From the NCBI GenBank assembly GCA_964509565.1, contig CAZDXE010000001.1, forward strand, positions 3,670 to 67,669: a DNA stretch of 64,000 bases. The letters are read 5' to 3'. Positions 17,795 to 45,102 of the stretch are shown piece after piece (within the stretch, counting starts at the first letter, position 1; each line of letters begins with the position of its first letter). A program made the translations under genes and the position numbers. The stretch is from an uncultured Dehalococcoidales bacterium (GTDB taxonomy: Bacteria; Chloroflexota; Dehalococcoidia; GIF9; AB-539-J10). Under the pieces are notes generated by a model, which was not told the origin of the DNA, made no database searches, and saw only the letters and a program-made list of their open reading frames with translations.

Positions 17795-18520
17795 TTATCT
17801 ACAATCGGGGCAAACATCAAAGAAATCCAATGGCAAACCAGCTTTCCCTCGCATATATTCCACCTGCTCTTCGGGAACCCAGTAGTTACCGCAGATTTTA
17901 CATTTCTTCAACTTGAATTCCTTTTTCCAATTGCGGGCATAGAGGGTTCTGGTATCTCCCCTATCCTCTATTTTTATAGCCCCAGTAGGGCAAACATAAG
18001 CACAAGAGCCACAACCTATACAAGCTGAAGAAGGCTCAAAAAAAGGTGGTGCCACTTCCCTATTCACCCCACGATTAACCAGGCTAATAGCACTTCTCTC
18101 TACAACTTGTTCACAAGCCCTAACACATAAGCCGCAAAGAATGCAATCTTTATCCTCCAGGTATTCAGGGTCAAATGGCGCTTGCTCAATGCCCATACTG
18201 GAAGCCAGTTCTTTTATAACCTTATTTTGAGAACAGCGAGCCAGGAGTAATTCCATTATCACTTTGCGGTTACTTATAACACGAGCTGAATTAGTTTTAA
18301 CTTCAAGTCCTTCTTCTATTGGGTAAATACAGGAAGTTACTAAACGGGAACGGCCATTTTTGAATATTTCCACCATACAGAGACGGCAAGCTCCATAAGA
18401 AGCTAAATTTTCATGGTAGCAGAGAGTAGGTATATTGATACCTTTCTCTCTGGCTACTTCGAGTATTGTTTGCCCTTCTTCTGTTTCTATCTTCTTTCCA
18501 TCAATATTGAGTGTTATCAT
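17795..18520 (-). CDS. HoxU/NuoG-N-terminal-like iron-sulfur protein ([2Fe-2S] plus two [4Fe-4S]), with no catalytic hydrogenase or formate dehydrogenase domain
   Basis: N-terminal plant-type 2Fe-2S motif C..(x10)..C..C...(x13)..C (TLCYHENLASYGACRLCMVEIFKNGRSRLVTSC), then CILCGLCVRAC and CIGCGSCAYVCP 4Fe-4S motifs, and a C-terminal Cys-rich tail. No H-cluster motifs. 241 aa. Confidence 0.8.
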   Translation of the reverse strand: MITLNIDGKKIETEEGQTILEVAREKGINIPTLCYHENLASYGACRLCMVEIFKNGRSRLVTSCIYPIEEGLEVKTNSARVISNRKVIMELLLARCSQNKVIKELASSMGIEQAPFDPEYLEDKDCILCGLCVRACEQVVERSAISLVNRGVNREVAPPFFEPSSACIGCGSCAYVCPTGAIKIEDRGDTRTLYARNWKKEFKLKKCKICGNYWVPEEQVEYMRGKAGLPLDFFDVCPDCR

Positions 18521-18527
18521 TCTTGGT

Positions 18528-20414
18528 TTACCTTATGCCCACAGCTCCCAATTTACAAACATCTTTACAGATACCACACTTGATGCATTTACTCTGATCC
18601 AGAGCTACTGGTTTTTTCTTGCCCTTGAAAGCTATAGCTTCCACGGGGCAAGCTTTTTCACAAAGTCGACAACCTGGGCATTTATCCTCTTTTATGTAAT
18701 ATTGAATCAAGGCTTTACACACACCGGCGGGACATTTCTTCTCTTTGATGTGTGCTTCATATTCATCTCCGAAATAACGGATAGTGGAGAGCACTGGATT
18801 AGGGGCAGTTTTACCCAAAGCGCATAATGAGCAATCCTGCAAAGTAGCAGATAAACGCTCCAAAAGTTCAATATCTCCCTCTTTCCCTTTCCCTTCAGTG
18901 ATGTTATTTAATATCTGGCGCATTCTTTTTATGCCCTCACGACAGGGAACACACTTGCCACACGATTCTTCCTCCAGAAAAGTGAGGAAATATTTAGCGG
19001 TATCCACCATACAAGTATCCTCGTCCATAACAATCATGCCACCTGACCCCATCATTGAGCCTGCCTTGCTCAGTTCATCGAAATCCACAGGCATATCAAG
19101 CATGCTTTCAGGAATAACACCACCAGATGGGCCTCCAGTCTGTACACCTTTGAATTTTCTCCCATCTTTTATGCCTCCGCCAATATCATAAATAACTTCC
19201 CGTAGTGTCATTCCCATAGGCACCTCTACCAGCCCAGTATTGTTTACCTTACCCACCAGTGAGAAAATTTTTGTTCCTTTACTTCCTTCAGTGCCTATAG
19301 CTTTAAACCAATCAGCGCCTTTATTAACTATTAAAGGCACATTTGCCAGGGTTTCCACATTATTCAAGTTACTGGGTTTATCCCACAGACCTTTTTCCAC
19401 CGTGTGAGTGTATTTAGCTCTGGGCTCTCCGGCCCTACCTTCCAGAGACGCCATTAAGGCAGTTGATTCGCCGCAAACAAAAGCGCCACCACCTCTGTTA
19501 ATGTGAACAACAAAGTCAAAGCCAGAGCCAAGGATATTTTCACCTAAAAAACCTAGCTGTCCTGCCTGCTCTATGGCTATCGTGGCATTTTCCACCGCTA
19601 AAGGATATTCGTTACGCACATAAATATAGCCTTCGTGAGAGCCAATAGCATAAGCGCATATTATTAATCCTTCAAGAACACTATGAGGATTACCTTCGAG
19701 TAGGCTTCTGTCAGAGTAAACTCCTGGGTCACCCTCATCACAATTAGCGATAACATACTTGGGTTCTCCTGTAGCGTTACGGCAGAATTGCCATTTCTGC
19801 CCCGTAGGAAATCCTCCGCCCCCACACCCCCTCAACCCTGAACGTTTGATCTCCTCTATCGTCTCTTCCGGAGTCAATTCAAAGAATACTTTAGCTAAAG
19901 CCGAATAGCCACCCAACGCAATATAATCCTCAATATTGTTAGGATCAATTTCGCCATTATTGCCAAAAACGATTCTTTTCTGTCTTTTATAAAAAGGTAT
20001 CTCGGCAGGATGTATATATTTTTTTCCGCTGGCAGGGTCAATATACAGCAACCTGTCAACAATCCTGCCGTCGATAACAGTATCCTTTATAATTTGAGAT
20101 ATATCCTTTACCTCCACCTTTTGATAAAAAACATCGCCGGGCTGGATGATAACAATCGGTCCTCGTTCGCAAAAGCCATGACACCCTGTAGTTTTTATGT
20201 TAACTTTATCAGTGAGATTCTGAGTTGCTACCTCCTGTCTAAGAGCCTCTGTAACCTCTACACACCCACTAGCATGGCATCCTGTGCCATTGCACACGGT
20301 AATGAGCGACTTGTCTCTCTCCCCTTCTTTTTTCGCCTGTACCTTCTTTTTTAGATTTTCTAAATCGCGTAAAGAGTTAATCTTGCCCACTAGCAAACTC
20401 CCATAATTATTCAT
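18528..20414 (-). CDS. NuoF/HoxF/HndC-like NAD(P)H-binding flavoprotein with N-terminal [2Fe-2S] and C-terminal 2x[4Fe-4S] domains
   Basis: 628 aa. N-terminal thioredoxin-like 2Fe-2S region ([14 protein letters not shown]..), the 51-kDa NADH/FMN core ([13 protein letters not shown].., ..CGESTAL..), and C-terminal CPxCxxCxxAC ferredoxin motifs. Confidence 0.85.
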
Positions 20415-20898
20415 ATTTACTTAATATTGAGGCAACTTGACCAGTGTTTACTTGTCCAAAATACTTGCCATCAATCCTTACCACCGGGCCCAGGGCACAA
20501 CATCCCATACAATTCACCGTTTCTAGCGTGAACTTAAAGTCACCAGTCGTTTCCCCGGCGTTAATTTCTAATCTTCGCTCAATTTGCTCCAACACTTTAG
20601 ATGCACCTCTAACATGGCAGGCAGTTCCCAGACAAACGCTAACTGTATGTCTGCCCTTAGGTTCAAGGCTAAAAGTTTTGAAGAAAGTAGCTACGCTATA
20701 CACCCGGCTTAACGGAATATCCACAACCTCACTTACCTGCACTAAAGCTTCCTTGGGTAAATAGTGAAAGCTGGACTGGATATCCTGCAATATAGCAATC
20801 AACTGGCCTTCTTCAGCCTTATATTTATCAATAATGGCAGTAACTTCCTGCTTATCCATAATTTCATTGTGAGCAGTGCCTGATTTTTCCCTGGTCAT
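20407..20898 (-). CDS. NuoE/HoxE/HndA-like thioredoxin-like [2Fe-2S] ferredoxin subunit
   Basis: 163 aa with the C-x4-C..(x35)..C-x3-C pattern ([21 protein letters not shown]) of 24-kDa subunit homologs. Overlaps neighbours by 8 and 4 nt. Confidence 0.85.
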
Positions 20899-21815
20899 TG
20901 AGCAGCTTTCTCCTTGATTCTGGCATATTCCTTGTTTACTCTCTGCTGTATTTTATCCACCAGCTCCGGTGTAAGATGTCTGAATCTCCCCTGGGGTTTC
21001 AGATAATCTATAACAGGGCGCAGCTGTGGCGGGTCATAATTCAAGCTATATTTTCCATTCTCTACTTCATAAAGGGGGAAAACACCTGTTTCTACTGCCA
21101 GCCTGCCCAGCTTTATGGTCATATCGGTAGGAATTCGCCAGCCTGTAGGGCAAACAGCAAATACGTGAAGGTAACTTGGGCCCTCAATTGCTATTGCCTT
21201 TTTTACCTTGTTCATAAGGTCGAAGGGATAGCTTGCAGAGGCAGTAGCTACGTAGGCAATATCATGAGCTACAGCGATAGCTGGCATATTTTTCTTCCAT
21301 GTGCTTTGCCCAAAACTGGTTTTGCCCGCTGGTTGGGTGGTAGTTGAAGCACCGAATGGAGTGGCACTCGACCTTTGAATACCTGTATTCATGTAAGCCT
21401 CGTTATCAAGGCAAACATAAAGAAAATCATGTCCTCTCTCAAAAGCGCCAGATAAGGCCCCGAGGCCAATATCAAAAGTTGCTCCATCTCCACCTATAGC
21501 TACTACCTTAGCTCTGGGCAAAGAAGCTCCTTTGCGAGCCAGAGCTTTTCTGGCAGATTCTATGCCTGTAGCTACCGGGGCAGCATTCTCAAATAAGGTA
21601 TGAATCCAGGGAACCTCCCACGCAGTATAAGGAAGTTGCGAGGATATAATTTCCATGCAGCCAGTGGACATAACAACGATCACATCTCGCCCTAAAGCTT
21701 TCATTACAAGCTTCAACGCCAGAGCCTCGCCACACCCTGAACAGGCACGATGTCCCGGGGTAAAGCTTTGCCTCTTTGTTACCAGACGAGGTGCATATAT
21801 GCTCAGAGTTTCCAT
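20895..21815 (-). CDS. porB: Pyruvate/2-oxoacid:ferredoxin oxidoreductase beta subunit (TPP-binding)
   Basis: ..VIVVMSTGCMEI..AIGGDGATFDIG.. TPP/Mg-binding GDG motif. 306 aa. Confidence 0.88.
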   Translation of the reverse strand: METLSIYAPRLVTKRQSFTPGHRACSGCGEALALKLVMKALGRDVIVVMSTGCMEIISSQLPYTAWEVPWIHTLFENAAPVATGIESARKALARKGASLPRAKVVAIGGDGATFDIGLGALSGAFERGHDFLYVCLDNEAYMNTGIQRSSATPFGASTTTQPAGKTSFGQSTWKKNMPAIAVAHDIAYVATASASYPFDLMNKVKKAIAIEGPSYLHVFAVCPTGWRIPTDMTIKLGRLAVETGVFPLYEVENGKYSLNYDPPQLRPVIDYLKPQGRFRHLTPELVDKIQQRVNKEYARIKEKAAQ

Positions 21816-22990
21816 TATTTCTCCCTTACATCAAACACTTCGACTTCACCAAGTTTGCCTTGACTAGCTTTATCCATTCCACGATGTATCATATTTTGAA
21901 AGTCTTCAACTGAAATATCTCTACCACCCAATCCGCCGATAAAACCAATAACCTGTGGCCTTTCTTTCAAATGATATAAGGCAGCCTGTACTTCAGAGCA
22001 AACAGGCCCTGGCCCACCAACGGAAAGGGCACGGTCAAGAACGATGAGCAATTTTGCTTGACCTACAGTTTGGCGGAATTGCTCAAAGGGAAATGGCCGC
22101 CACAGGCGTAATCTCACCAGGCCCACTTTCTCTCCCGCTTTCTTGAGTCTATCTATAGCTTCCATGGCCACTTCGCTGAAACTTCCCATAGTCAGAAGTA
22201 AAACATCTGCATCCTCTGCTCCATAGGTTTCCACAGGCGAATAGTTACGTCCGAATTCTTCTCCAAACTTTTGCCATACCTGGGTAATCACCTTTAGTGA
22301 GTTTCGCAAAGCCATATCATGCGCTACCTTAGCCTCAGTATAAAGGTCAGGTAGAGCAAAATCTCCCATAGCTACTGGATTATTCACATCGAGAACAAAA
22401 GGATGATGATATTTGGGAAGAAATCCAGTTACCTTCTCCTGTTCAGGAAGCAAGACAGCTTCAATAACATGTGATAGGTGAAAACCATCAATATGAATCA
22501 TGGTAGGAAGAAGAACCGCAGGGTCTTCAGCAATGTGGAAAGCACATACAGTCAAATCGAAAGACTGTTGAGCATTCTCAGCAAATATCTGAACCCAGCC
22601 TGTATCGCGAACAGACATAACGTCGGAGTGGTCTCCCCAGATACTTAACGGTACTGACAACGCCCTGTTGCATACAGACATAACTATAGGTAGCCGCATC
22701 CCTGATGCTACATATACTACTTCGTGCATTAGCTCCAGTCCCTGACCAGAGGTAGCGATGAAAGTCCGCCCGCCTGCTGCCGAAGAGCCAAGGCAGGCAC
22801 TCAATGCTGAGTGCTCTGATTCAACAGGTATATAATTTGCATCCAGTTCCCCATTAGCAACCAATTGTGCCACCCGTTCTACAATATGGGTCTGAGGAGT
22901 AATAGGGTAAGCCGCACAGACGTCAATATTAGCCATCTTGACTGCTTCCGCTATGGCAAAGGAAGATTCAAAAGCTACTCTTCTCTCCAT
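21815..22990 (-). CDS. porA: Pyruvate/2-oxoacid:ferredoxin oxidoreductase alpha subunit
   Basis: 391 aa. AIAEAVKMANIDVCAAYPITPQT.. pyrimidine-binding domain. 1-nt overlap with porB. Confidence 0.88.
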   Translation of the reverse strand: MERRVAFESSFAIAEAVKMANIDVCAAYPITPQTHIVERVAQLVANGELDANYIPVESEHSALSACLGSSAAGGRTFIATSGQGLELMHEVVYVASGMRLPIVMSVCNRALSVPLSIWGDHSDVMSVRDTGWVQIFAENAQQSFDLTVCAFHIAEDPAVLLPTMIHIDGFHLSHVIEAVLLPEQEKVTGFLPKYHHPFVLDVNNPVAMGDFALPDLYTEAKVAHDMALRNSLKVITQVWQKFGEEFGRNYSPVETYGAEDADVLLLTMGSFSEVAMEAIDRLKKAGEKVGLVRLRLWRPFPFEQFRQTVGQAKLLIVLDRALSVGGPGPVCSEVQAALYHLKERPQVIGFIGGLGGRDISVEDFQNMIHRGMDKASQGKLGEVEVFDVREK

Positions 22991-22993
22991 TTT

Positions 22994-23878
22994 CTATGCC
23001 TCAACCATAGTTATGGCTCCCGTCCAGCACTCACGGGCACAAATGCCACATCCTTTACAATAAAATTCATCAGCTTCAAAATAACCCTCCGCATCCTGGC
23101 GAATACAATCTTCAGGGCAAAAGAGAGCACACATACCACATTTAATACATTTCACGTTATCTCTCACAGGGCGTTCTGATTTCCAATATCCAGTTTGGTA
23201 GCTCCTGGCATTCCCCATCTCAGTTACTACAAAACCAGGATTTAGCTCTTTCCATGATAGGCTTTTCTCGACAGGGTAGACTTTTTTGGGTTTCTTAGCG
23301 CCAGGGATTGATTCCATTATAAGAGCTTCTTCATATGCTCTGCTGCAAGCCTTAACATTGATTTCACTTAGTTTGCCAAATCTTTCTTGCAGCGGCTGAG
23401 TTAAAGATTCCAGATTAACCATACCAGTTGCCTTTATCAGGGCTCCTAACATAGCAGTATTGACAATAGGTCTCTTCAGTATATCCCGGGCAATAGCAGT
23501 AGCATCTACTACTGCTAATTTCCATGGGCCACCAATTTCCGAATTTACGATGGCTAATCCTTTTGAGCTATTTACTACGAGAACGCCGCCATCCTTGAGC
23601 CCATGGGTAACATCGATAATACCAAGCAAGCCAGGATCTAATATCACAACGACATCAGGTTCAGCAATAGCAGCCCTGGATCTGATAGGTTTATCTATAC
23701 TTACGCGATTGAAAGCTATGACGGGAGCCCCTCTCCTCTCAGGGCCGAAGCTGGGGAAAGCTTGAGCAATTTTGCCTTCCTTTATTGCAGTTGAAGCCAG
23801 AAGTTCCGCCGATGTTACCGCTCCCTGTCCTCCTCTGCCATGCCAGCGAATCTCTATAATATTATCCATCACTTGCAA
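22994..23878 (-). CDS. Pyruvate:ferredoxin oxidoreductase gamma-delta fusion (PorG plus 2x[4Fe-4S] PorD)
   Basis: N-terminus IEIRWHGRGGQGAVTSAELLA.. is gamma-type. C-terminus CIKCGMCALFCPEDCI...CKGCGICARECWTGAI is the delta ferredoxin. 4 nt upstream of porA. Confidence 0.85.
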   Translation of the reverse strand: MQVMDNIIEIRWHGRGGQGAVTSAELLASTAIKEGKIAQAFPSFGPERRGAPVIAFNRVSIDKPIRSRAAIAEPDVVVILDPGLLGIIDVTHGLKDGGVLVVNSSKGLAIVNSEIGGPWKLAVVDATAIARDILKRPIVNTAMLGALIKATGMVNLESLTQPLQERFGKLSEINVKACSRAYEEALIMESIPGAKKPKKVYPVEKSLSWKELNPGFVVTEMGNARSYQTGYWKSERPVRDNVKCIKCGMCALFCPEDCIRQDAEGYFEADEFYCKGCGICARECWTGAITMVEA

Positions 23879-23887
23879 CTTCTACTC

Positions 23888-23959
23888 TACCCCTGAAGGG
23901 ACTCGAACCCTTGCACCTGGCTCCGGAGGCCAGCGCTCTATCCTCTGAGCTACAGGGGC
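23888..23959 (-). tRNA. tRNA-Arg (anticodon CCG)
   Basis: Reverse complement GCCCCTGTAGCTCAGAGGATAGAGCGCTGGCCTCCGGAGCCAGGTGCAAGGGTTCGAGTCCCTTCAGGGGTA. Anticodon loop CTCCGGA gives CCG. Good cloverleaf; CCA not encoded. Confidence 0.87.
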
Positions 23960-24172: not shown

Positions 24173-25858
24173 ATGAAATTACTATCTCGGCTGCTTATTG
24201 CTCTACTTGCCTGCCTTATTGCCATTCCTGCGATGGCTACACCAGTTCAAGCTGCTGACATTTCCAGTATGTCGCTACATCCGAGTAGCGGCACAGTTGG
24301 AGAGGAAGTGTATATTACAGGCTCATGTGAGAGCAGTGATGATTATTGGGTATACTACCAGCTGAATACCAACGAATGGGTAGAAGTGCTGGAGGATAAT
24401 GACTTTGACTTTGACTCGAATGGGGAGGACTATGAATACAGCACCAAGGATGAGAAATTCCTCATCCCCGAGAGCTGCAGTGGAAAACACGCAATCACGA
24501 TTTGCGATAAAGACCTGGGGAGTTCAGTGGATGATGATGATGAAGTTGAAGACGATGAAAAATATTCAAAAGACTTCACTGTAAAGCCAAAAGTAGAAAT
24601 AATAGAGATAGCAGGCGACGAAATAGATGACCCCGATGATGCCAGAGGAGCAACGGGAATCGAAGTCACGGTGAAAGGCACCGGGTTCGGTGAGGATGAA
24701 GAGGATATCGATATATTGTTCGAGGGCGAAGTAGTATCAGATGAACAATTTGAAGCAGATGAATATGGCACATGGGAAGGAACCTTTGAGGTGCCCACTG
24801 CTACCAAGGGCGACCATGATGTTTCAGCCGAGGGTCATGATACCGATGAGGATGATGTCGAGGAAGCTACCTTTGAGGTAATGCCTGGTATAAGCGTGGA
24901 TCCGAAAAGTGGCTCACATGGTGAGACTGTAACTGTAACAGGCAACGGATTTGGAGAGGACGAAAGAAATATTAAAATACTGTTTGATGATGACACGATA
25001 GCCAGTGGCATCGAGGCTGATGAGGATGGCTGCTGGGAGGAGACTTTTGATGTGCCTCAATTTGCCAAAGGCAAATATGATATAACGGCCGAGGGTAGTT
25101 ATACTGATAAAGACGACATTGACGAAGTGGAATTTGAGATAGTGCCCGGATTAACATTGTCTCCTGTCCAAGGGAATGTGGGGACAACCTTATCCGTCAG
25201 CGGTAGTGGCTTCCCCAAGAACACGTCAGTAGTTATTACCTATGATGGAGTGACCAAGGGTAGCAGCACTACCCAGAGCAACGGCAGCTTTTCAGGCGTG
25301 AGCTTTGAGGCTACACATATTCAGACAACACACACTACAAAACATCCAGTGGTAGCTACTGGTGGTTCTACTACGCTTACCATCAACTTCACCATGGAAT
25401 CAGTTGCACCACCTGCCCCTACTCTCACATCTCCAACCGCTGAGGAAAGGGTCGGCTCCGTAATAGGCAGTAAATTTACTCCTGCATTCGAATGGCAAAC
25501 CGTAGTGGACGACAGTGGAATCAACTATTATAGCTTGCAAATAGCCAGCAATGTAGATTTTACTACGGAAGCTATACTATTTTCGCGGAATTTAACAGTG
25601 GCAGAGTTGGCTGCCGGCACAGGATCAAATACAATTAGTTATGCCCTTCCCAAAGATAGCGCTTTACTTTACGGCACCTACTATTGGAGAGTAAAAGCAA
25701 TTGACAATGCTCAGAATGAATCCGCATGGAGTGTTGCTCATTCCTTCAAGACCGGGCTTTTGCCCTTCTGGGCGCTTATATCTATTGCTTCTCTAATAGC
25801 AGTGCTCATTGGCGCTCTAGTTTATCTCCTCATCAAGAGGGGAGGGTCTTATGATTAA
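24173..25858 (+). CDS. Secreted, C-terminally membrane-anchored, highly acidic cell-surface protein with tandem IPT/TIG-like Ig-fold repeats and a C-terminal FN3-like domain
   Basis: Sec signal peptide (MKLLSRLLIALLACLIAIPAMATPVQA/AD). Three repeats of roughly 75 aa with the G.TVTV.G.GFGEDE..I.ILF....V.....EADE.G.WE.TF.VP....G..D..AEG pattern and more than 30% D/E. An FN3-like segment (YYWRVKAIDNAQNESAWS). A C-terminal hydrophobic helix plus KRGGSYD tail. Strong AGGAGGG SD. TTGAAT-N17-TAAAGT promoter-like sequence upstream. Confidence 0.7.
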   Translation: MKLLSRLLIALLACLIAIPAMATPVQAADISSMSLHPSSGTVGEEVYITGSCESSDDYWVYYQLNTNEWVEVLEDNDFDFDSNGEDYEYSTKDEKFLIPESCSGKHAITICDKDLGSSVDDDDEVEDDEKYSKDFTVKPKVEIIEIAGDEIDDPDDARGATGIEVTVKGTGFGEDEEDIDILFEGEVVSDEQFEADEYGTWEGTFEVPTATKGDHDVSAEGHDTDEDDVEEATFEVMPGISVDPKSGSHGETVTVTGNGFGEDERNIKILFDDDTIASGIEADEDGCWEETFDVPQFAKGKYDITAEGSYTDKDDIDEVEFEIVPGLTLSPVQGNVGTTLSVSGSGFPKNTSVVITYDGVTKGSSTTQSNGSFSGVSFEATHIQTTHTTKHPVVATGGSTTLTINFTMESVAPPAPTLTSPTAEERVGSVIGSKFTPAFEWQTVVDDSGINYYSLQIASNVDFTTEAILFSRNLTVAELAAGTGSNTISYALPKDSALLYGTYYWRVKAIDNAQNESAWSVAHSFKTGLLPFWALISIASLIAVLIGALVYLLIKRGGSYD

Positions 25859-25909
25859 ATTAAAGATCGCATAAACTATAATTTATGTGACTTTTATACG
25901 TGGCGCACA

Positions 25910-25927
25910 TTACTTTATGTAAAGTAA
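25910..25927. promoter_or_regulatory. Perfect palindrome TTACTTTA-TG-TAAAGTAA upstream of the tubulin-like gene (candidate operator/promoter element)
   Basis: An 8+8 inverted repeat with a 2-nt spacer, 21 nt upstream of the ATG at 25948. It shares the TAAAGTAA octamer with the region 24143-24150 upstream of the surface-protein gene. Confidence 0.35.
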
Positions 25928-25947
25928 TTTAAACGAGGAGGATTAAA

Positions 25948-27123
25948 ATGAAATTAACAGTTATTGGATTAGGACAATGTGGTTGCCGCATTGCTGACCA
26001 GTTTGCCAGGCTTAATTCCAAGGCACAAGTTGAGCGCAGGGCAACCATAGCGCCAGACATAGTCGCTGTGAACAGCGACCAGGCAGATTTAACTGGATTG
26101 AGATTTATTAAGAAAGACTATATGCATAGTATACTCATCGGTTTACGCCAGACATTGGGGCATGGCGTGGGCAAGATAAATGAAATAGGCGCCCAATTAG
26201 CCAGAGAAGATGGGGATAAGGTGATGGATGCTATAAAGGCAGAGCCAACGTTTTATGAAACACATGCTTTTCTGCTCATTGGTGGTGCTGCTGGTGGCAC
26301 TGGCTCAGGCGCATTACCTGTGATTGCTCAGATGATTAAGGAGAGGTATCTCAATAAACCGATTTATGCCCTTGTTGTATTACCATTTGAACATGAAATT
26401 AGCAGTGAGACCAGAAGCGTATACAACACAGCCACCTGTCTCAAATCCATATATGATGTAGCCGATGCCGTTTTCCTGGCTGATAACCAGAGGTATGTTA
26501 GAAAAGATGCCAGTCTGGCTAATAACATAGAAAAAATAAACCGTCATATTGCAGAACCCTTCTATGACTTGATGTGCGCTGGCGAAATAACTAAGCGCAA
26601 ATTCGTGGGCTCCAGAACTGTAGATGCAGGAGACATTATTGCCACACTGGAAGGCTGGACAGCTATTGGAATTGGTAGAACTCCGCTGCCGTCATTTCGT
26701 TTCCCATGGGAAATAAAGAAGAAAAGCTTCCACGAGAAAGCTATGGAAAGCTTTCGAGGCTCTCAGGCCCTGGATGCTACACTATCTGACCTCTCTATTG
26801 GCTGCGACCCTAATGATGCTGCCAGAATTACATATATTATATCTGGACCAGCCAAGGAAATGAACATGGATATGGTCAAAGGCGTTAGCGAGTATCTCAA
26901 AGAGATATCGCCCACTGCTTTAATCAGAGGCGGTGACTTCCCTGGTGAAAAACACTTTATCGATATCACATTGATATTATCTCAGCTCTCTTCCGTGCCT
27001 AAAATAAAGGACCTTTATGAGAAAGCTGTCAAATATGGACAGGAGCATAAAGGTCAAATAGAGGAAAGTCACAAAAAAATTCAATCCATGGCTGATGTAG
27101 GCAAGGAATTGCCCACATTGTAA
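25948..27123 (+). CDS. Tubulin/FtsZ-superfamily GTPase, CetZ-like and non-canonical (not the division FtsZ)
   Basis: N-terminal MKLTVIGLGQCGCRIADQF has the T1 loop GQCG, as in tubulin GQCGNQ and CetZ GFGQAGG. T4 signature IGGAAGGTGSGALPVIAQMIKE matches tubulin/CetZ GGGTGSG, against FtsZ GGGTGTG. A GHGVG motif and ..FLADNQRY.. (T7-like DN) follow. From memory, the N-terminal roughly 230 aa align along their length with Haloferax CetZ1. GAGGAGG SD. Confidence 0.75.
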   Translation: MKLTVIGLGQCGCRIADQFARLNSKAQVERRATIAPDIVAVNSDQADLTGLRFIKKDYMHSILIGLRQTLGHGVGKINEIGAQLAREDGDKVMDAIKAEPTFYETHAFLLIGGAAGGTGSGALPVIAQMIKERYLNKPIYALVVLPFEHEISSETRSVYNTATCLKSIYDVADAVFLADNQRYVRKDASLANNIEKINRHIAEPFYDLMCAGEITKRKFVGSRTVDAGDIIATLEGWTAIGIGRTPLPSFRFPWEIKKKSFHEKAMESFRGSQALDATLSDLSIGCDPNDAARITYIISGPAKEMNMDMVKGVSEYLKEISPTALIRGGDFPGEKHFIDITLILSQLSSVPKIKDLYEKAVKYGQEHKGQIEESHKKIQSMADVGKELPTL

Positions 27124-44457: not shown

Positions 44458-45102
44458 TTATTTTGCCCGATACTTATCTATGCCCTCTTCATTTAACTCG
44501 ACATCGCCAATGCCCATTTCAAGAGCCTTTAAGTTCAATTTCATCTTTCCGTGCGGAAAGATATTCCACATTTCATTCTCAACATCCGCCCTTTCCAGAA
44601 CAAGTTGGCCTGAACCAATGAGAGCTCCTACCATAATAATATTCACAACTATGGGAGCGCCCAGTTTCGATGCTATACTTGTAGCATCTACAAGCCAGAC
44701 TAACTTAGAAAGCTTTACAATTGCTTCCTTAAGTTCATCACAACCAGGGTATTCCTCTTTTTCTGAAAGTGCTCCTATTGTCAAGATAGGATGTGTATTG
44801 GTTACACACACTACTCCTGGGTTTCCATATCGCTGTAGCATCCTTAAAGTCTCCAGAGGTTCAAGTCCGAGAATAAGATGAGCTTTACCTTGTGGAATTA
44901 GCGGCCCATAATGCCCTTTAGTAAATATCCTGAGGGTACTAAAAACGGCGCCGCCCCTCTGGCTAGCCCCAAATGTTTCTCCTATAGTGACATGATAGCC
45001 CTTCTTCATCAACGCATTACCTATTAAGCCTGAGATTAAGATGTTCCCTTGACCCCCAACTCCACAAATAATCAGGTTTAATGGGTCACAAGAAATAGCC
45101 AT
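44458..45102 (-). CDS. iorB: Indolepyruvate (aromatic 2-oxoacid):ferredoxin oxidoreductase beta subunit
   Basis: ..LIICGVGGQGNILISGLIGNALMKKGY.. is a typical IorB N-terminus. 214 aa. 1-nt overlap with iorA. Confidence 0.88.
   Translation of the reverse strand: MAISCDPLNLIICGVGGQGNILISGLIGNALMKKGYHVTIGETFGASQRGGAVFSTLRIFTKGHYGPLIPQGKAHLILGLEPLETLRMLQRYGNPGVVCVTNTHPILTIGALSEKEEYPGCDELKEAIVKLSKLVWLVDATSIASKLGAPIVVNIIMVGALIGSGQLVLERADVENEMWNIFPHGKMKLNLKALEMGIGDVELNEEGIDKYRAK

Follow-up and report, generated by a model that had tools for sequence, protein, structure and literature searches.

How a tubulin of the CetZ type comes to be encoded in a bacterium is the question raised by a 64,000-nucleotide stretch of an uncultured Dehalococcoidales genome (assembly GCA_964509565.1, contig CAZDXE010000001.1, positions 3,670 to 67,669), which is referred to below, at its full length, as the window. 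CetZ is treated as the archaea-specific third branch of the tubulin superfamily, and a recent review describes it as specific to archaea (Brown and Duggin 2023, PMC9856176). The gene at issue, at positions 25948-27123 of the window, encodes a protein of 391 amino acids, which an initial annotation made from the sequence alone took for a CetZ/tubulin-like GTPase that was either horizontally acquired or the representative of an undescribed bacterial clade. The analysis described here shows that the window gene encodes a CetZ-family GTPase and not FtsZ, and that it is a chromosomal gene of a bacterium. Its overall interpretation, by analogy with better known relatives and at a probability of roughly 60%, is that the product would be a filament protein for shape or envelope organization that acts beside FtsZ and FtsA.

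The family assignment is carried in the first place by profile matches. Residues 3-182 match the Pfam family Tubulin (PF00091; E 3.9e-32, 112.5 bits against a cut-off of 33 bits), and residues 189-361 match CetZ_C (PF21011; E 1.4e-19, 70.7 bits against a cut-off of 21.6 bits), the latter over positions 3-179 of the 180 in the profile, so that this search, one of the checks proposed with the initial annotation, has tubulin and CetZ families as its best matches, both above gathering scores. The similarity to archaeal CetZ that had been noted for the N-terminal 230 or so residues is real, but the limit placed on it is not, since the whole protein is covered. Among PDB chains compared by sequence (phmmer), the best matches are 4b46 (1.7e-46), 4b45 (4.3e-27), and 3zid (4.2e-17); the best FtsZ stands at 6.8e-09 and the best tubulin at about 6e-07. 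The top three PDB matches, as named by the fold search, are CetZ1 and CetZ2 of H. volcanii and the CetZ of Methanosaeta thermophila.

Structure prediction, likewise proposed as a check, returns the two-domain fold of CetZ. The AlphaFold model, computed without templates from a 113-sequence alignment that combined three identity tiers, has a predicted local distance difference test score (pLDDT) of 85.7 and a predicted template-modeling (TM) score of 0.88; a model from 31 close homologs, none below 74% identity, had a pLDDT of 37.7 and was discarded. In a Foldseek search with the model, which is not fully independent of CetZ since the alignment behind it contained haloarchaeal CetZ sequences, the best match is CetZ1 (E 1.5e-30, TM 0.91 on the target, root mean square deviation 2.8 Å), ranks 1-4 are occupied by CetZ1, CetZ2, and M. 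thermophila CetZ, and FtsZs (about 1e-20) and TubZ (about 4e-19) follow.

The motifs named in the initial annotation are all present in the 391-residue reading frame, with GHGVG at residues 71-75 and DNQ at residues 179-181 in addition to the T1 loop GLGQCGCR and the T4 signature GGTGSG. Across 113 aligned bacterial and archaeal members, residues G7, G9, Q10, and G12 of T1 are invariant, as are GGTGSG, the GHGVG and DNQ columns, and D226 of the T7 loop; D229 is invariant within the group of closest relatives, designated clade 1 (loci L001-L033, 70-95% identity to the window protein). In the phmmer alignment to 4b46, D226 and D229 pair with D215 and E218 of H. volcanii CetZ1. E218 we take to be the catalytic residue of CetZ1, that is, the acidic T7 residue responsible for polymerization-dependent GTP hydrolysis. 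As read from these alignments, the GTP-binding core and the acidic T7 residues are complete and are joined to a C-terminal domain of the CetZ type.

The claim that the protein is not the division FtsZ likewise holds. It scores 59 bits against the 295.2-bit cut-off of the NCBIfam FtsZ equivalog TIGR00065, the Pfam profile search gives no match to FtsZ_C (PF12327) at E ≤ 1, and the gene goes undetected in tblastn searches that take the FtsZ of E. coli or of M. jannaschii as query. A six-frame motif scan of the 64-kb window finds GGTGSG as its sole tubulin- or FtsZ-type signature and no FtsZ-type GGGTG[ST]G in any frame. What the window protein has in common with bacterial FtsZ is the superfamily fold, a resembling C-terminal peptide and, presumably, a GTP-dependent polymerization chemistry; what sets it apart is GGTGSG in place of GGGTGTG and the lack of an FtsZ_C domain and of a dcw/ftsA context. 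No dcw or ftsA-ftsQ context surrounds the window gene, and neither ftsZ nor ftsA was found in the window or in 84 relative loci (motif scan; tblastn).

Comparison with H. volcanii CetZ1 (4b46) illustrates how much of the archaeal architecture is retained. Both proteins have two domains and about 390 residues, both start directly at strand S1, and both carry GxGQxG, GHGVG, GGTGSG, DN, and the acidic T7 residue aligned with E218. Like archaeal CetZ, moreover, the window protein has an acidic tail with a terminal hydrophobic Pro-Leu peptide (…DELEPLF in Halobacteria, …KELPTL in the window), but the form of this peptide is ΦPxL rather than EPLF. The two differ in sequence (about 29-33% identity), in host, in neighboring genes, and in belonging to separate clades, and the T1 loop of the window protein carries cysteine (QCGCR), a trait of M. 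thermophila CetZ and of tubulin too, whereas that of CetZ1 reads QAGGK. The host of the window gene is a Dehalococcoidia bacterium and not an archaeon; on this ground, which is taxonomic rather than molecular, the protein is filed as a member of a bacterial CetZ-like subfamily and not as a canonical archaeal CetZ.

The bacterial setting is itself well supported. A scan in which each GTDB species was represented by one genome yielded 80 loci with relatives, nearly all labelled Dehalococcoidia, Dehalococcoidales, or Dehalococcoidaceae, among them one at 51% identity from a metagenome-assembled genome (MAG) of Dehalogenimonas. The closest locus (L001, from MAG JAGGZD01), 95% identical, has eleven consecutive genes in common with the window at 86-96% protein identity, and the same gene order is repeated in dozens of MAGs from independent assemblies, contigs of 2.0 and 2.3 Mb among them. 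Upstream of the gene the window encodes a TIG-domain surface protein, discussed below, and, beyond it, subunits of a 2-oxoacid:ferredoxin oxidoreductase and NuoE/F-like Fe-S proteins; downstream are an M24 peptidase, PitA with a PhoU-like protein, RarA, and AMMECR1. The GC content is flat across the region (0.43-0.47), and this flatness together with the wide and conserved distribution of the gene indicates that it has long been resident. A recent horizontal transfer was considered and rejected on the flat composition. Searches of plasmid and phage collections with tblastn gave no bacterial plasmid or phage relative, the only matches in the plasmid collection being haloarchaeal megaplasmids at no more than 32% identity. 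The cetZ-like gene thus belongs to a bacterial chromosome and is the product neither of faulty assembly nor of recent import.

The family to which the protein belongs is large. A database of 5.8 billion proteins contains more than 5,500 matching clusters (90% identity), a number that is a lower bound. The best 120 for the window protein are all at least 74% identical to it, and the best 120 for the family profile add another Chloroflexota/Dehalococcoidales tier, with identities of 52-58%. When 1.84 billion representatives (50% identity) were searched exhaustively, 1,163 clusters had E ≤ 1e-3, among them 66 with E ≤ 1e-30. Some members already bear database labels such as “tubulin-like protein CetZ” (JGI) or “tubulin/FtsZ family protein [Dehalococcoidales bacterium]” (NCBI).

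Their relationships were examined, again in line with a check proposed at the outset, in a neighbor-joining tree of 94 sequences (363 columns, 100 bootstraps) that included β-tubulin and was rooted on E. coli and M. jannaschii FtsZ, all three sequences having been verified against PDB chains. CetZ plus tubulin, with the window protein on their side, split from FtsZ at 100% bootstrap, in a tree whose deep nodes are weak and in which β-tubulin is misplaced. The window protein, all main-group sequences labelled Dehalococcoidia or Chloroflexota, and their unlabelled relatives form a bacterial clade of 30 tips (92%), separate from haloarchaeal CetZ1 and CetZ2, within which the window protein's own subclade has 100% support. 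On the other side of the tree are the three crystallized CetZs together with sequences from Halobacteria, Methanosarcinales, Methanospirareceae, and Nitrososphaerales and one sequence labelled Chloroflexota, P0189. UniRef names the halobacterial ones “Tubulin-like protein CetZ”. The archaeal group nearest to the bacterial clade is that of the Nitrososphaerales, with a support of only 23%. These comparisons place the window protein in a bacterial clade that is large, strongly conserved, and separate from FtsZ. Both halves of the original alternative are therefore partly right, in that the gene belongs to a bacterial clade (92%) on the CetZ/tubulin side and has long been resident, but the word “undescribed” has to be given up, as the group is mentioned in a published survey (PMC9871819) and some of its members were already labelled CetZ by JGI.

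Several deep branches of the bacterial clade owe their taxonomy to gene context, which is bacterial where it is informative, as with a tandem FtsH and MacB-type exporter or a GntR regulator. P0189 (MFC1919407.1, Chloroflexota bacterium), 28% identical to the window protein, lies on the archaeal side near M. thermophila CetZ, where it groups with P0191 (80% support), and suggests from its position that bacteria may have CetZ-like genes from more than a single lineage. The Nitrososphaerales (Thaumarchaeota) “tubulin/FtsZ family” group (P0150, P0161, P0170, and relatives) is sizeable, with proteins of 365-437 residues that have no C-terminal Pro-Leu peptide.

A further subclade, supported at 96% (P0145, P0152, P0156, P0165, and P0167; 418-441 residues), occurs in mobile or phage-like DNA. 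The genes at L081 10001-11257 and L082 10001-11257 (P0145/P0290) lie between resolvases, IS66, IS605/TnpB, and a group II intron reverse transcriptase, are present in several copies per sample, and are followed by a gene of about 325 codons without a Pfam match. The gene at L086 4229-5491 (P0156) lies amid small open reading frames on the same strand, with an Acb1 anti-CBASS gene nearby. In this subclade a CetZ-like tubulin may have been put to use in the manner of TubZ/PhuZ, or the subclade may have served as a vehicle for transfer.

In the published record, the bacterial CetZ-like subfamily is catalogued once, and no study of its members was found. Santana-Molina et al. (2023; PMC9871819) list CetZ-like proteins in Chloroflexota-Dehalococcoidia, which are almost certainly the same group as the window protein, and report that a CetZ_C model matches bacterial CetZ-like C termini at about 1e-10, as against 1.4e-19 for the window protein. 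They call the bacterial groups “sparse paraphyletic”, whereas here the group is large (more than 5,500 clusters) and its main clade is monophyletic (92%). No further literature on CetZ in Dehalococcoidia, Chloroflexi, or Chloroflexota was found. The value of the present analysis thus lies in anatomy and hypotheses and not in a first sighting of bacterial CetZ-like genes: within the literature searched, the surface-protein partner, the clade-wide C-terminal peptide, and the paralogs that flank a coiled-coil gene in a second clade, all described below, were not found reported.

One of these features is the C-terminal peptide. Among the best clusters listed, 99% of 119 from clade 1 and 100% of 120 from clade 2 (the sister clade, loci L034-L079, 54-58% identity to the window protein) carry a C-terminal [LIVM]P.[LIVMF], as do none of 120 haloarchaeal CetZs, with their …DELEPLF. 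The window protein ends in …KELPTL, both of the paralogs found in clade 2 in …KDIPSLL, and the Dehalogenimonas protein in …GIPSLLE, and most deep branches of the bacterial clade keep the peptide (DIPTLL, GLPSLL, EVPSLL, ELPLLL, and similar). In the model of the window protein it follows the last helix and has a low pLDDT. The bacterial CetZ-like consensus, (D/E)(L/I)PxL, resembles the DIPxFL of FtsZ, whose C-terminal tail (…DYLDIPAFLRKQAD) was verified in full-length PDB chains and is a landing pad for FtsA, ZipA, SepF, MinC, and EzrA (PMC3418248). As the likeness extends over six residues, homology between the two peptides is put forward here as a hypothesis.

Another feature is the surface protein encoded directly upstream. 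Its Pfam matches are to TIG (3.4e-15) and Ig_Rha78A_N (3.2e-06), and a signal peptide and a C-terminal transmembrane helix can be read from the translation. Adjacency of this gene was a point on which the initial annotation had called for a survey of orthologs, and the outcome is clear for one part of the family: the same TIG protein lies directly upstream and on the same strand in all 31 loci of clade 1 whose sequence reaches beyond the gene, and in clade 1 only. Its orthologs there have 530-585 residues, and the cytoplasmic tail ends in YD in 28 of 30. Mean pairwise identity is 0.36-0.51 in the ectodomain, 0.66 in the last extracellular segment, 0.63 in the transmembrane helix, and 0.59 in the tail. 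In some clade-1 loci (L004 3-3155, L005 649-3954, L011 1252-4848, and L032 1006-4527) a second, giant surface protein of 1050-1200 residues is encoded upstream of the TIG gene, which suggests, from gene order, that surface-protein genes cluster beside the cetZ-like gene. The giant proteins have a different conserved anchor, ending in …VIVLIFRTRRV, and the YD ending is therefore no generic anchor.

Clade 2 presents a quite different arrangement. Most of its loci have two cetZ paralogs, 66% identical to each other, which flank a divergently transcribed gene for an Ala/Glu-rich repeat protein of 600-800 residues, without a signal peptide or a Pfam match and probably a coiled coil. The order of genes is HGD-D, GAPDH, an unknown gene, cetZ-b, the coiled-coil gene, cetZ-a, dnaX, recR, and recO. 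The coiled-coil gene, at L068 5755-7770 on the minus strand and in an equivalent position in about 40 clade-2 loci, is transcribed divergently from cetZ-a and is a candidate for a filament partner. In five loci a gene for an archaeal-type flagellin/pilin (PF01917) with a class-III-like signal peptide is inserted after cetZ-a (L068 9574-10221; also L035, L047, L049, and L056). In Dehalogenimonas, the linkage of GAPDH and cetZ is kept with a single cetZ copy and with neither the TIG nor the coiled-coil partner. The Dehalococcoidia thus carry a large, conserved, and sometimes duplicated CetZ-like family with candidate partners and a candidate docking peptide.

The biology of the host lends interest to these arrangements. 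The Dehalococcoidia include the organohalide-respiring Dehalococcoides and Dehalogenimonas, of importance in bioremediation, and are disc-shaped and without peptidoglycan. According to Wiegand et al. (2023; PMC10608941), dcw and peptidoglycan genes are missing from D. mccartyi and from every high-quality genome of the Dehalococcoidales and SAR202, all of which keep adjacent mraZ-mraW-ftsA-ftsZ, and the wall of these bacteria resembles an archaeal S-layer. The family described here offers testable entry points into the question of how bacteria without a wall set their shape. Kruse et al. (2021; PMC8163811) found that D. mccartyi BTF08 makes FtsZ (btf_0595) and, in addition to it, an “FtsZ/Tubulin GTPase” (btf_0551), and that these two proteins and the nearby hypothetical btf_0548 are scarcer in co-cultures in which cells change from discs to barrels. 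As a possible ortholog of the window gene, btf_0551 is a lead, and the proteomic link is correlative. Archaeal CetZ directs rod formation and motility, as summarized in the account that PMC11459167 gives of Duggin 2015.

On the interpretation preferred here, the protein would assemble in a GTP-dependent manner into head-to-tail protofilaments under the cytoplasmic membrane, as in archaeal CetZ, with hydrolysis activated by assembly. Such filaments would organize shape or envelope alongside the FtsZ/FtsA division machinery, without replacing it, in a lineage whose S-layer envelope is archaeal-like and which has no peptidoglycan sacculus. The (D/E)(L/I)PxL peptide would probably be a docking motif for a membrane tether, for which FtsA and SepF are candidates by analogy with the DIPxFL of FtsZ, and in clade 1 the filament would be coupled to the single-pass surface protein encoded upstream, possibly via its YD-ending cytoplasmic tail. 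Several observations weigh against this. The link to shape derives from the analogy with haloarchaeal CetZ1 and from one correlative proteomics study, and there is no single conserved partner, as the TIG protein is limited to clade 1, its place in clade 2 being taken by a coiled coil and a second paralog. Conserved adjacency inside a single family-level group may also reflect shared ancestry in part. Further complicating the case, a likeness to the FtsZ peptide over about six residues could be convergent or coincidental, and in the AlphaFold model the peptide follows a long helix and not a disordered linker.

Among other explanations, the one closest to a shape or envelope organizer, with which it overlaps rather than competes, is that of a scaffold that positions or assembles one surface structure, namely the TIG/Ig protein or an adhesin in clade 1 and type-IV filaments or archaeal-type pilins in clade 2. 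The constancy of the TIG gene in the 31 evaluable loci would fit such a role, and the PF01917 genes that immediately follow cetZ-a in five or more loci of clade 2 parallel the reported situation in Halobacteria, where the type-IV-filament loci with which CetZ2 co-localizes include adhesin-like proteins (bioRxiv 10.64898/2026.04.22.720090; PMC9856176). The partner differs by clade, however, Dehalogenimonas has neither partner, and dnaX rather than a pilin gene is downstream in most clade-2 loci; a dedicated scaffold is seen as unlikely. A second division-ring tubulin that works with FtsZ in the manner of archaeal FtsZ1/FtsZ2, its peptide binding the same anchors, is more doubtful still. It would account for the resemblance of the peptide to DIPxFL, division without peptidoglycan may need extra constriction factors, and the D. 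mccartyi tubulin-like protein, a possible ortholog, shifts in abundance together with FtsZ (PMC8163811). The nearest relatives of the window protein, however, are CetZ and not FtsZ1 or FtsZ2, and no locus has a division-gene context. Deletions of haloarchaeal CetZ, in the 2015 work of Duggin et al., reportedly leave division unblocked, which also counts against such a role.

Bacteria do have non-FtsZ tubulin-like GTPases of other kinds, TubZ and BtubA/B. BtubA/B are true tubulins of about 430-470 residues, and their sequence match to the window protein is confined to about residues 100-190. TubZ is plasmid- or phage-borne and works with a partner adaptor. A TubZ/PhuZ-like DNA-segregation tubulin left by an integrated plasmid or prophage might be entertained on the strength of the 96% subclade among resolvases, insertion sequences, and phage-like reading frames. 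The window gene, however, is chromosomal and sits amid housekeeping genes (the oxidoreductase, PitA, RarA) in a synteny kept across many MAGs, in DNA of even composition and with neither an adaptor gene nor a repeat array seen nearby, and the collections hold no bacterial plasmid or phage relative, all of which leaves this origin highly improbable. That the family is best known from archaea might, finally, raise the suspicion of an archaeal gene brought into a bacterial bin by mis-assembly or contamination; as the same gene order recurs in independent MAGs with bacterial genes on both sides, the synteny excludes this for practical purposes.

The finding bears on the transfer of cytoskeletal systems from archaea to bacteria, and the preferred reading of a shape- or envelope-organizing filament can be extended into a historical scenario, which is speculative and, taken as a whole, improbable. 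A Dehalococcoidales ancestor in the course of exchanging its peptidoglycan wall for an envelope of the S-layer type would have taken up an archaeal-style CetZ, for which the mobile subclade is a possible vehicle, and would have rewired it with an FtsZ-mimicking peptide to FtsA or SepF. Envelope partners, in clade 1 the TIG protein with its YD tail and in the Dehalococcoidaceae the giant coiled-coil protein and the second paralog, would then set the disc shape.

Table 1. Features of the cetZ-like gene and its surroundings in the window
Feature	Position	Strand	Remarks
cetZ-like gene	25948..27123	+	ATG start, 391 aa (amino acids), tubulin/FtsZ-superfamily GTPase with predicted CetZ-type C-terminal domain
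T1 nucleotide-binding loop GLGQCGCR (residues 7-14)	25966..25989	+	read from sequence
T4 tubulin signature GGTGSG (residues 116-121)	26293..26310	+	six-frame motif scan
T7 loop VDAGD (residues 225-229)	26620..26634	+	phmmer alignment to 4b46
C-terminal peptide KELPTL-COOH	27103..27120	+	member of clade-wide (D/E)(L/I)PxL(L) motif
Shine-Dalgarno GGAGG, 6 nt before ATG	25937..25941	+	sequence
Perfect 9+9 palindrome ATTACTTTA-tg-TAAAGTAAT, in 89-nt intergenic gap	25909..25928	.	putative element
AT-rich 8-bp hairpin AATAAGCA-ggt-TGCTTATT, overlaps stop codon	27122..27140	.	sequence
TIG/IPT- and Ig/FN3-like surface protein, 561 aa, secreted, acidic, C-terminal transmembrane anchor	24173..25858	+	
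Transmembrane helix of surface protein, Arg/Lys stop-transfer, cytoplasmic tail ending Tyr-Asp-COOH	25754..25855	+	

The elements proposed to control the gene (Table 1) fared unevenly. The Shine-Dalgarno site of its own is as described, and almost every orthologous locus examined has retained a site of the GGAGG type. The hairpin that had been called terminator-like contains just 2 G-C pairs, lacks a T run, was not called in a terminator scan of the window, and was rejected as an intrinsic terminator. The next gene begins 24 nt after it, and read-through into that gene is therefore likely. The palindrome is real, but its reading as an operator was rejected: it is kept in L001 only (95% protein identity) and is already gone in L002 (87%), and the enrichment of perfect 9+9 palindromes (spacer of at most 4) in the window is weak, at 3 against 1.1 expected. 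The other two are at 44543 and 45593. With terminator and operator both unsupported, the idea of a discrete, regulated unit loses its basis. No promoter-like site was called by a promoter scan of the gap upstream of the cetZ-like gene, co-transcription with the surface-protein gene is possible, and it appears more likely that the conserved unit is the pair of the two genes.

Farther upstream, at 17795-23878 on the minus strand, the window encodes a four-subunit 2-oxoacid:ferredoxin oxidoreductase (a gamma/delta fusion, alpha, and beta), followed by NuoE-like, NuoF-like, and 2Fe-2S/4Fe-4S proteins, a module that is likely electron-bifurcating or NADH-linked and that adjoins a tRNA gene at 23888-23959.

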